Origin: Escherichia phage UGJNEcP1
Sequence record: OV754623
Reading direction: 5' to 3' (one strand)
Length of the DNA stretch: 64,000 nucleotides
The notes below the pieces were generated by a model. The model had not been told where the DNA came from, searched no databases, and was given only the letters and a program-made list of their open reading frames with translations. Every line of letters starts with the position of its first letter. Position 1 is the first letter of the stretch. Made by a program: the position numbers and the translations under genes. Shown here piece by piece: positions 10,281-64,000 of this stretch.

Positions 10281-10310
10281 ATAGTATCACACATCCATGT
10301 GTTTGTAAAC
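10281..10310 (-). promoter_or_regulatory. T4 early-type promoter (GTTTAC-N18-TACTAT)
   Basis: Read on the minus strand; overlaps the alt stop; spacer carries the palindrome ACACATCCATGTGT. Confidence 0.5.
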
Positions 10311-61323: not shown

Positions 61324-61550
61324 TAGTAAGTTTCCTTCCAATAAGTTGTACCATTTTCAGTGATTTCACGGAAGATACCATAGATAGGCATTTCATCGCC
61401 GAGTTTTTCGTAAACGTAAACCACTTCGGTGTAGCATAAAAATTCAGTCCAGTTTTTCTGTACAACAACTAAATCAGGATTAAACAGAACATCTTCAAAC
61501 TCATCGATGTTTGAATCGGTAGTTACGTTTTTAATGATTTGACGTTTCAT
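61323..61550 (-). CDS. hypothetical protein
   Basis: ORF 61323..61595 trimmed to Met 16 (GAGGAG SD); the track start falls inside the predicted promoter. Confidence 0.45.
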
Positions 61551-61578
61551 AATATTCTCCTCTTGTTTTGATAGGTCT

Positions 61579-61608
61579 ATAGTATCATAGACCATAGTTG
61601 TTGTACAT
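61579..61608 (-). promoter_or_regulatory. possible early-type promoter (weak -35, TACTAT -10)
   Basis: Conserved leader TATAGACCTATCAAAACAAGAGGAG; -35 deviates from GTTTAC. Confidence 0.3.
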
Positions 61609-62132
61609 CATTTTAGCAAAATAAAATCAACTTGTTCTGCCAATGAACGTCTGAACATTAATTGACAACTTCCAAGGATGAAATCAGGTGCTTCATAGAC
61701 CGCGATGTAGTATCCTTTAGCTTTCAAGAGTTCAACATCCACCTGGTCATCAAACCATGCATAGACCGCGTCAACACTTTCAAATCCAAAATAGAACTCT
61801 TGAGCCCAATCTTCGCTCAATTCAAATGTGTGCTCAATTCTATGGTATCTTAAGGTATTTTGTTCAAGGAGTTTGTCTTCATTTACTGTAGGACGATTAG
61901 GGACATTATAGTTGTCGCCATGATGGTAGAAGTTACCTGAGAGTATTCCATGCTTATCAAGGAACTCCCATGTTTCTTCAGAGTTGTCGGTGCCCGACCA
62001 ACCGTATGGCGAACGAGGTTCTTTATTCCAAGAGGTTTCCCAAATTCTGACGGCTTTACCGTCTTCAATAGCAATTCCTGGTAATGATTCACGTTGAGTA
62101 CAAAAACTACGTTCTACTCGGTAAACTAACAT
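61608..62132 (-). CDS. hypothetical protein
   Basis: 174-aa ORF; early-type promoter and GAGGAG SD upstream. Confidence 0.5.
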   Translation of the reverse strand: MLVYRVERSFCTQRESLPGIAIEDGKAVRIWETSWNKEPRSPYGWSGTDNSEETWEFLDKHGILSGNFYHHGDNYNVPNRPTVNEDKLLEQNTLRYHRIEHTFELSEDWAQEFYFGFESVDAVYAWFDDQVDVELLKAKGYYIAVYEAPDFILGSCQLMFRRSLAEQVDFILLK

Positions 62133-62158
62133 ATTATTCTCCTCTGGTTGATATGGTT

Positions 62159-62187
62159 ATAATATCAAAACCAGAGGAGAAGTAAAC
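62159..62187 (-). promoter_or_regulatory. T4 early-type promoter (GTTTAC-N17-TATTAT)
   Basis: Upstream of the ORF starting at 62132; inverted repeat CTCCTCTGGTT / AACCAGAGGAG. Confidence 0.5.
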
Positions 62188-62191
62188 AACT

Positions 62192-62611
62192 TTATGCAAA
62201 AGATGCTGGACAATATTTTTTGATTTGGAACTCAGGAACTACCATGAACTGACCAGCAAAAACAATGTTATAAAGCTTGACGCCATCTTCAACCCATTGG
62301 TCACTGATGAACCCAGCGACTTGATTCGTTGTCCACGGTGTTCCGTCTGTCGCAGAGGCAATGGTGAACTTGTGGTCTTTTACAACTAAAACCGATCTGC
62401 ACAGTTTCCATTTGAACGCTTTTTCTTCCGGTTCAATGAATTGGCTTTTAACGTAACCAATGTTACCATCGGCGTCACGAACTTTAATTTCGTTACGTCC
62501 AAAAACAGGATCACTCACATAAAGAACTTCAACCAACTTCCCGGCAACTTTAGAGCGAGAAGCATCCGATACGTGTACATAATCACCAATAGAGAGATTT
62601 GCAATATTCAT
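62192..62611 (-). CDS. paralogue A of a tandem family (KOW-like N-terminus, DQWVEDG C-terminal motif)
   Basis: C-terminus GFISDQWVEDGVKLYNIVFAGQF shared with the next two genes; N-terminus SIGDYVHVSDASRSKVAGKLVEV shared with paralogue B. Confidence 0.55.
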   Translation of the reverse strand: MNIANLSIGDYVHVSDASRSKVAGKLVEVLYVSDPVFGRNEIKVRDADGNIGYVKSQFIEPEEKAFKWKLCRSVLVVKDHKFTIASATDGTPWTTNQVAGFISDQWVEDGVKLYNIVFAGQFMVVPEFQIKKYCPASFA

Positions 62612-62620
62612 AATAATTCC

Positions 62621-63085
62621 TTAAGCTTTACGAGGAGACACATAGCGAGTGATTTCAGATTCTTCAACAACTCGGAAGTCACCTAAGAATACAATATTGT
62701 ATAGCTTTTTACCATCTTCAACCCATTGGTCGCTGATGAAGCCGCACATAGTATCAGTTTTGCTTGGATAACCGTATTCGTCGATGTAATCAAATTCTTT
62801 ATCGGTTATAAATTCAACGCCTTTGCAAAGGGCCCATTTGAACTGTGTAGTAGGCTCAACGATATCGCTTGAAGCAAATTGGACTCGTATATGTTTTTCC
62901 AGGAATTTAGGACTTACGTAAGCATACTGGGCATCTTGTCCGCCAAAACTCGGGATGATTCGAACTTTAACTTCTTTAACACGTCCCATGCCGTTAGTAC
63001 GAAGCCCTGCTACTTCAACCAGACGACCTGCAGCTTTAGAACGAGAAGCAGGAGATACACGAAGGATTTCACCAATAGTAATCAT
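62621..63085 (-). CDS. paralogue B of the tandem family
   Basis: ORF 62621..63148 trimmed to Met 22 (track start lies in the promoter); GFISDQWVEDGKKLYNIVFLGDF. Confidence 0.55.
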   Translation of the reverse strand: MITIGEILRVSPASRSKAAGRLVEVAGLRTNGMGRVKEVKVRIIPSFGGQDAQYAYVSPKFLEKHIRVQFASSDIVEPTTQFKWALCKGVEFITDKEFDYIDEYGYPSKTDTMCGFISDQWVEDGKKLYNIVFLGDFRVVEESEITRYVSPRKA

Positions 63086-63115
63086 AATTTCTCTCTCTTT
63101 GTTTAAATTGAATTC

Positions 63116-63145
63116 ACTATACTCCATCCATCCTTGGATGTACAA
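63116..63145 (-). promoter_or_regulatory. early-type promoter variant (TTGTAC-N18-TATAGT)
   Basis: Upstream of paralogue B (start 63085); spacer CCAAGGATGG. Confidence 0.45.
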
Positions 63146-63147
63146 CA

Positions 63148-63642
63148 TTAATTAAGGATATTAACCACAGCACTACGTGGAACAACACTAAAATCACCAG
63201 CATGAACAACGTTAATAAGTTCAACACCATCTTCAATCCACTGGTCAGTTACCCATCCACTCACTGGACCTGCGAACGGACGTCGAATTGAAACGGCTTT
63301 ACACAACAAATCAGTAGGCTCAATAGGCTTAATCAGAGTACCGTACATACAAGCGATGTCCATATCAAAGTGGAGACCATCTTTAACAGGTGCTTCTTCA
63401 ATCAACAGTTCAAAGTCTGTGCTTGGAAGGGCGGTAGTAGAAATTGTACCGTATGAATTTTTAATTTCTAAGAATAACCAAGGGCCTTCAGCTTGTTTGA
63501 TGAAGTTAACAATAGTGAAACTATTACCTTGAGTGGCACCTAAAATTTCACAAAACTTTTCATAAGCTCGCACTGAAGCACCGTACCAATTGATTTGTTT
63601 TTCGTCTTTCAGGATGTAAGTAGCCGTAGTATTGATATTCAT
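63148..63642 (-). CDS. paralogue C of the tandem family (C-terminal domain only shared)
   Basis: C-terminus GWVTDQWIEDGVELINVVHAGDF; own promoter and AGGAAA SD. Confidence 0.55.
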   Translation of the reverse strand: MNINTTATYILKDEKQINWYGASVRAYEKFCEILGATQGNSFTIVNFIKQAEGPWLFLEIKNSYGTISTTALPSTDFELLIEEAPVKDGLHFDMDIACMYGTLIKPIEPTDLLCKAVSIRRPFAGPVSGWVTDQWIEDGVELINVVHAGDFSVVPRSAVVNILN

Positions 63643-63673
63643 AATGTTTTTCCTGTTTGGTTAAGATAGAAAG

Positions 63674-63703
63674 ATTATACTCCAACCATCCTTGGTTGTA
63701 AAC
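63674..63703 (-). promoter_or_regulatory. T4 early-type promoter (GTTTAC-N18-TATAAT)
   Basis: Upstream of paralogue C (start 63642); spacer CCAAGGATGG. Confidence 0.5.
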
Positions 63704-63707
63704 TGTT

Positions 63708-64000
63708 TTATCGCTGTTTTACACTTAACGGGTCAGGATTCTCAGGGACATCTTCAAGGCCAAGCGCATAACGCTGGGCATATTTTAACATCAAAATATC
63801 TTTAGCACAATCATGAATACTATCATGGGCAACGAATCCTTTTAGCGTACCCATCGGTAATGGACACATACTTAATCCTCGTGTCAACGAGTAAGCTTCG
63901 ATTGCCGTACGAATATCACGTTGAGCCCAGAATTTAACAGGTTCTAATTTATCAGTATCAATATCTGGTTCAAGAACACCTTCATCACGATAGAGGTCAC
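63708..64000 (-). CDS. hypothetical protein (3' end only; start lies beyond the window)
   Basis: Hand-translated minus frame open to the window edge, ending ...ENPDPLSVKQR just upstream of the 63674..63703 promoter. Confidence 0.35.
   Translation of the reverse strand, partial: DLYRDEGVLEPDIDTDKLEPVKFWAQRDIRTAIEAYSLTRGLSMCPLPMGTLKGFVAHDSIHDCAKDILMLKYAQRYALGLEDVPENPDPLSVKQR

Follow-up and report, generated by a model that had tools for sequence, protein, structure and literature searches.

The motB cluster of Escherichia phage UGJNEcP1: three MotB-family genes in an RB69-type arrangement between dexA and cef

Close to its end, a 64,000-nucleotide stretch of Escherichia phage UGJNEcP1 (sequence record OV754623; this whole stretch is referred to as the window, position 1 being its first letter) carries three adjacent minus-strand genes, here named C, B and A, whose products end in a common C-terminal domain (CTD) with a DQW(V/I)EDG core. 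We read this locus, at a probability of about 0.88, as the RB69-type (Mosigvirus) motB cluster located between dexA and cef, with C being motB.1, B being motB and A being a second motB copy that is old and restricted to one lineage. Across the window, sequence identity to Escherichia phage UGJNEcP2 (OV877511.1) is 100%; that phage belongs to Mosigvirus, among the RB69-type Tevenvirinae. The final 2 kb of the window hold, in minus-strand order, dexA (cut by the window end), gene C (63148–63642, an open reading frame (ORF) of 164 aa), gene B (62621–63085, 154 aa when counted from the ATG at 63085), gene A (62192–62611, an ORF of 139 aa), gene D (61608–62132, 174 aa, the motB.2 orthologue) and cef. 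The original prediction, made from the letters of this DNA, had pointed to three neighboring minus-strand genes with a shared CTD and had ventured a MotB-like identity for them; the ORFs are present, the peptide blocks it quoted recur in them verbatim, and the observation is confirmed, with the family guess being right and the feature being one that is already known.

All three proteins score above the gathering threshold (25 bits) of the Pfam motB family, PF17613, with 127.4 bits for B, 81.7 bits for A and 36.8 bits for C. The match spans residues 3–151 of B, and in C it comprises residues 88–159 aligned to profile positions 82–153, that is, the CTD alone. Proteins A and B fall into PHROG 1671 ("MotB-like transcriptional regulator") and protein C into PHROG 2333 (E 6e-81). 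Pairwise BLASTP alignment, which the original prediction had proposed as a check, returns similarity far beyond chance, with 42% identity over 148 aa for A and B (E 5e-32), 62% identity over 29 aa for A and C (E 7e-12) and 44% identity over 36 aa for B and C (E 3e-10), and a tblastn search with the three CTDs across the whole window yields no CTD copies beyond these. DUF1653, which had been put forward for comparison, finds no match in Pfam at E ≤ 1 with A, B or C, and membership in that family is rejected.

Proteins A, B and C are true paralogues through a shared small β-barrel CTD, to which A and B add a KOW-like barrel and C adds an unrelated LSm/SH3-like N-terminal domain (NTD). The kow and ctdB hidden Markov models (HMMs) both match A and B, bearing out the claim that these two share a KOW-like NTD, and both proteins display the SRSK-AG(K/R) motif in the NTD and FKW.L and DQWVEDG.KLYN in the CTD that characterize MotB proper; the location expected of MotB proper, the dexA–cef interval, follows from synteny, and its early expression is predicted from promoter-like sites. 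Protein B is composed of a basic KOW-like NTD, a disordered linker and the CTD (62624–62842, minus strand, with FKWALC and, further on, GFISDQWVEDGKKLYNIVFLGDF), and protein A of a KOW-like NTD, a short linker and the CTD (62195–62416, minus strand, with FKWKLC and, further on, GFISDQWVEDGVKLYNIVFAGQF), the two CTDs having been compared in alignment A3. In the HMM scan no KOW domain is found in C, which therefore does not count as MotB proper; it is matched instead by the lsm HMM (built from alignment A2) and the ctdC HMM and has the CTD of the MotB.1 subfamily (DPTDLLCKAV..GWVTDQWIEDGVELLNVVHAG). Its NTD (residues 1–85; 63388–63642, minus strand) is of the MotB.1 type, the lsm HMM matching this ORF class only, and has no sequence kinship with the NTDs of A and B; it is followed by a disordered linker with DMDIACMYGTL and by the MotB.1-type CTD (63151–63321, minus strand, with EPTDLLCKAVSIRRPF and, further on, GWVTDQWIEDGVELINVVHAGDFSVVPRSAV).

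To look for relatives beyond the T4-like phages, 1.84 billion representative proteins were searched exhaustively with a profile made from the three CTDs; this gave only 29 matches, three of which are spurious repeat proteins (Ig, MucBP/choline-binding and C1q), and the CTD family is a tiny one, made of proteins of 100–250 aa. Within it, the MotB.1-type CTD is almost invariant across proteins that differ in their N-terminal parts, being fused to an LSm-like NTD, to a middle domain of ~90 residues (in proteins of ~180 aa), to both of these (in proteins of ~248 aa) or to a KOW NTD.

Comparison with T4 and RB69 supports the gene assignments. Protein B aligns end to end with T4 MotB (NP_049626) at 46% identity (BLASTP, E 2e-41) and protein A at 39% identity (E 6e-29). 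Like T4 MotB, both have a two-domain layout with the SRSKAAGK and DQWVEDGVKLYN motifs and lie in the dexA–cef interval, and T4 motB, like gene B, has its own early-type promoter, a promoter-like GTTTACA-N17-TATAAT being located at the place that corresponds to the B promoter. They differ from T4 MotB in net charge (+6 for T4 MotB versus +1 for B and 0 for A), in the absence from A of about 20 linker residues, and in copy number, with one copy in T4 and two in the window phage. Protein C is 38% identical to T4 MotB.1 in its 119-aa form (BLASTP, E 4e-29) and 46% identical to the 143-aa T4-type MotB.1 (P0010). It shares both NTD and CTD with the intact 143-aa protein (ADJ39729.1 of T4T) and is, like it, encoded directly upstream of motB, but carries a further linker segment of 22 residues, HFDMDIACMYGTLIKP, found also in forms of 166–169 aa and in the ~180-aa CTD proteins.

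The closest match in layout is RB69 (RB69p013, p012, p011, p010 and p009), where the order motB.1, motB, MotB-like, motB.2, cef is identical to that of the window, the promoter sequences are the same and A, B and D have one-to-one orthologues (A being of the RB69p010 type; RB69 MotB measures 151 aa and that of pEB20 154 aa). A difference lies in motB.1, which is split into ORFs of 132 and 29 aa in the RB69 reference and is intact in the window. The C-B-A order recurs in pEB20, NBG1 and IMG/VR loci and, among the loci examined, the three-gene set occurs only in RB69-type loci, others having one KOW-type and one MotB.1-type gene. It has been reported that MotB and MotB.1 have a CTD in common, that one of the two genes may be a duplicate of the other, and that motB is present twice in RB69, alongside one motB.1 and one CTD-like peptide of 29 aa, these being termed category 1 (MotB proper), category 2 (MotB.1) and category 3 peptide (Patterson-West et al. 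2021, PMC7827196). Since that work already covers both the shared CTD and the RB69 layout, the array in the window is a correct rediscovery of a published family.

Gene D was considered as a fourth paralogue and rejected, as its sequence resembles none of A, B and C and does not match Pfam motB, although it is called MotB in pEB20. Its product is 33% identical to T4 MotB.2 (BLASTP, E 1e-16), and D is thus the orthologue of T4 motB.2 and shares only a name with MotB. In T4 the order is dexA, motB.2, motB.1, motB, cef, and motB.2 (positions 2162–2662 of the stretch T4 NC_000866.4 5500–9000, compared with window 61608–62132) therefore lies between dexA and motB.1, whereas its homologue lies between the motB genes and cef in the window and in RB69, so that the two genera differ by a local rearrangement of gene order. 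With window 61500–64000 as the query, megablast matches fall at two places in most genomes, among them OV877511.1 and the majority of Mosigvirus records.

The original prediction had taken the array for a product of recent duplication and divergence in a hyperplastic region, which would entail copy number varying among close relatives. In favor of this are the tandem arrangement of the genes, a 20-nt stretch of identical DNA that is the longest shared by A and B (GACCAATGGGTTGAAGATGG, in the DQWVEDG motif), the promoter-like sites of B and C detailed below, which agree at 24 of 27 positions including an exact CCAAGGATGG, and chimeric proteins encoded in short metagenomic contigs (P0147, P0151 and P0149). 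Against it, A and B are only 42% identical in protein sequence, so that B resembles T4 MotB (46%) at least as closely as it resembles A, their synonymous difference is near saturation (pS 0.64), and the same codon is used at just 38 of the 62 identical residues. The A type moreover forms a discrete clade: of the 778 phage records with any MotB homologue, 207 have an A orthologue at 80–100% identity and none has one between 60 and 80%. Every Mosigvirus locus examined, RB69 included, has the same three-gene layout, so that the comparison of related genomes for copy-number variation came out negative, and each gene is under purifying selection. In neighbor-joining trees, built from whole proteins, NTDs and CTDs in turn, A does not come out as a near sister of B; the attachment point of A varies among these trees, and we therefore call the A/B split old without giving it a date. 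A recent origin is accordingly very improbable, and on this sequence evidence we take the A/B duplication to be old. What does hold of the earlier proposal is that the region is mosaic: in the comparison with NBG1, the genes have synonymous divergences (dS) of 0.06 (B), 0.41 (A), 0.16 (C) and 0.10 (D), an about 7-fold spread between adjacent genes, and such unequal dS to one and the same relative indicates recombination breakpoints between genes. Among the metagenomic contigs (1.1–3.8 kb), P0147 and P0151 combine a B-type NTD with an A-type CTD, or B with the tail of A, the joints lying at FKW.LC or inside DQWVEDG; P0149 joins a T4-type NTD to an A-type CTD, and a 43-aa fusion, which completes the chimera set of P0147, P0149, P0151 and P0191, runs from a MotB.2 start to a MotB.1 CTD end. 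Such chimeras could have arisen by unequal crossing-over or deletion between paralogues, or could be artefacts of assembly.

A further alternative, raised in the original prediction as a possible refutation, is that a single frameshifted gene has been broken into the three ORFs, or that these are decaying pseudogenes. The T4 and RB69 reference records do contain a frameshifted motB.1, which lends the idea its plausibility. In the window, however, every ORF comes with a start, a stop and a ribosome-binding site of its own and is untruncated relative to its homologues, A and B each hold a complete NTD and CTD, the three genes are annotated separately in many genomes, and more than 100 independent genomes agree on separate ORFs. 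The ratio of nonsynonymous to synonymous divergence (dN/dS) against five relatives is 0.08–0.12 for A, 0.05–0.26 for B and 0.03–0.19 for C, and values in this overall range (0.03–0.26) mean that all three genes are maintained under purifying selection and are neither pseudogenes nor one frameshifted gene. We regard this alternative as next to impossible, and retain the reading of the locus as an RB69-type motB cluster of three separate genes.

The frameshifts in the reference records are of interest in their own right. The T4 reference motB.1 (NP_049627, 119 aa) ends in DQWI-GRWR followed by a stop, owing to one extra G in the DQWIEDG motif (locus at T4 NC_000866.4 7221–7650), with the remainder of its CTD intact in the next frame. 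An uninterrupted 143-aa MotB.1 is found in 13 other records (eleven of T4, RB55 and RB59); two alignment pieces are needed only for AF158101/NC_000866, and the 119-aa form is found only there. Kim et al. had motB.1 synthesized by GenScript and reported a 13.8-kDa monomer (PMC12152347), which is the size of the 119-aa reference form, and their heterologous assays therefore made use of a protein lacking the end of the CTD. In RB69, the reference motB.1 (NC_004928.1 2877–3373) has two single-T insertions relative to the window that split it into the 132- and 29-aa ORFs, and this accounts for the 29-aa peptide of PMC7827196. The intact copy in the window shows the full-length MotB.1, and experiments built on the T4 reference motB.1 used an incomplete CTD.

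The longest ORF of B, 62621–63148, encodes 175 aa and is annotated as such in OV877511. The ATG at 63085 opens with MITIGEILRV, which matches MIINIGELARV of T4 MotB, and the upstream extension is closed or out of frame in pEB20, NBG1 and RB69, where a 2-nt length difference in an AGAGAG run shifts the frame. Judged from these sequences, B almost certainly starts at this ATG and is a protein of 154 aa. Window 63086–63148, by which the annotated B is over-extended, covers the promoter-like site of B itself.

That B and C each have an early-type promoter-like site with CCAAGGATGG in a 17-nt spacer, as originally noticed, is borne out and extends to related phages. The exact CCAAGGATGG occurs in two copies in the 64-kb window, at 63686–63695 and 63128–63137. 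The first is held in the spacer of the sigma-70-like site upstream of C (63674–63702, minus strand; TTTACA-N17-TATAAT, 11 of 12 consensus matches) and the second in that of the site upstream of B (63116–63144, minus strand; TGTACA-N17-TATAGT, 9 of 12). The C site is kept in six related loci including RB69, and the B site in RB69 and other Mosigvirus loci, its −10 element reading TATAAT in pEB20. Gene A is without a promoter of its own and starts 9 nt past the stop codon of B, behind an AAGGA that overlaps that stop, and the B–A junction is identical in seven related loci. From this arrangement, C, B and A would be expressed at once upon infection, from early promoters of the host sigma-70 type, one ahead of C and one ahead of B, with A being co-transcribed with B. 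Elsewhere in the window, minus-strand sites of the form TTTAC(A/T)-N16-17-TA(C/T)(T/A)AT occur at 10309, 17226/17670, 21123, 24655, 25838, 49546/49867 and 52437/52949, several of them as near-identical pairs; their spacers show internal symmetry and frequently contain CAAGGA or GGA(T)G. Because many early-promoter-like sites have such symmetric spacers, the CCAAGGATGG spacer is to be seen as an extreme case of a genome-wide promoter style.

Another promoter-like element lies between A and D, where a minus-strand hairpin at 62137–62181 has a predicted free energy of −24.5 kcal/mol (z −5.2). The ribosome-binding site of D (GAGGAG, 62139–62144) is situated within the 3′ arm of this hairpin, and a promoter-like TTTACT-N16-TATTAT (62159–62187, in the 62137–62187 region) has its −10 hexamer, at 62159–62164, inside it. 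The hairpin is identical in relatives except for the loop and provides no covariation evidence. Transcripts reading through from upstream would mask the ribosome-binding site of D and transcripts begun inside the hairpin would not, and the sequence suggests that D may be translated only from transcripts starting within the hairpin, in a PeSL-like manner. PeSL cassettes combine an early promoter (in the T4 group TTTACW-N17-TAYWAT) with a stem-loop and flank variable genes (PMC4122927). The A–D element, with its promoter-like site (N16 spacer) and hairpin, would be a candidate of this kind; the C and B promoters hold just the short symmetries CCAA..TTGG or CCA..TGG.

To what fold the shared CTD belongs is a matter on which our models depart from the published assignment. 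HHpred analysis had predicted a KOW domain followed by an OB-fold CTD of the cold-shock DNA-binding type (PMC7827196), and in the description by Kim et al. 2025 (PMC12152347) the NTD of MotB.1 is a barrel of LSm-like/SH3 type that GoF and Frd.2 also possess. AlphaFold2 predicts B (pLDDT 79) as two β-barrel domains with a disordered linker and C (pLDDT 73) as two β-barrel domains with residues 87–108 disordered. The CTD models of B and C are alike, with five strands and a short helix ahead of the last one (strands 89–101, 107–123, 126–133, 136–141 and 145–149 and helix 142–144 in B). Foldseek with the whole of B lists tandem Tudor proteins ahead of eIF5A (rank 29, E 0.046), with weak scores and no domain ranges, and sequence searches for solved structures returned none for B and for C only a chance match to FYN-binding protein (E 0.05). 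Our call of the CTD fold rests on the match lists common to B and C together with the strand pattern, and the models suggest that B and C would each consist of two SH3/Tudor-like barrels, unlike the published KOW plus OB-fold. Tandem Tudor/KOW proteins (the tandem Tudor of 53BP1, the KOW pairs of Spt5 and the KOW domain of NusG) are 9–18% identical with weak scores, which is a fold resemblance and not family membership.

One explanation that builds on this fold is that the CTD is a Tudor/SH3-like protein-interaction module linking varied NTDs to one partner, either an H-NS-like nucleoid protein or the paralogues themselves, with the KOW domain binding DNA. It draws on the near-invariance of the MotB.1-type CTD across at least four different N-terminal arrangements, on the acidic character of the CTD in B, C and T4 MotB.1 (net −3 to −4) next to NTDs of +5 to +6 in B and T4 MotB, and on the alignment by Foldseek of whole B to tandem Tudor proteins before eIF5A. 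The same search outputs are silent on which domain was matched, HHpred had given the CTD an OB fold (PMC7827196), and T4 MotB and A have slightly basic CTDs (+2); on balance we hold the explanation to be a tentative one with the odds against it. Its broader version, in which the CTD would be a targeting or oligomerization module that brings interchangeable NTDs (KOW, LSm-like and others) to one host nucleoid partner, with the three paralogues making up a hetero-oligomeric set, is less likely still.

For the cluster read as motB.1, motB and second motB, a role can be proposed from T4 MotB, a tight DNA binder with no sequence specificity, which co-purifies with H-NS and StpA, proves toxic on overexpression and raises burst size about 2-fold (PMC6070864), and which alters the H-NS footprint and derepresses H-NS-regulated genes (PMC7827196). 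By homology, B would be made early and in abundance, would bind the DNA of host and phage alike, tightly and non-specifically, and would alter the placement of H-NS and StpA on DNA and modestly raise burst size. The net charge of B is +6 in the NTD and −4 in the CTD (+1 for the whole protein), that of A −2 in the NTD and +2 in the CTD (0 for the whole) and that of C −8. This distribution suggests the KOW domain as the DNA-contacting part and another role, in partner binding or oligomerization, for the CTD; the basic NTD of B would then be the likeliest part to touch DNA. Protein A has lost most of the positive charge of its NTD and is probably a sub-functionalized copy. Because C has a different NTD and a net charge of −8, a DNA-binding label is unsafe for it, so that of the original suggestion of MotB-like DNA-binding proteins the family stands for all three and the DNA-binding part does not carry over to C, which is of the MotB.1 type. 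Acidic C is probably no DNA coat by itself and probably relies on its shared CTD to engage the same partner or to oligomerize. A few points weigh against the assignment of the locus and the role drawn from it: B, at 46% identity to T4 MotB, has a net charge far below the +6 of the latter, deletion of T4 motB.1 gave no phenotype (PMC12152347), and sigma-70-like sites in the region number 7 against 8.5 expected from shuffling, the promoters being consensus matches only.

As the family, its shared CTD, the duplication and the RB69-type three-gene layout have all been published, the array itself adds little. The predicted structures put the OB-fold assignment of the shared CTD in question, and should the CTD act as the targeting or oligomerization module outlined above, the published negative results on T4 MotB.1 would have come from a reference-derived 119-aa protein lacking the last three strands of that domain. 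These by-products refine a known system and could give a new direction to studies of host nucleoid handling by T4-like phages.

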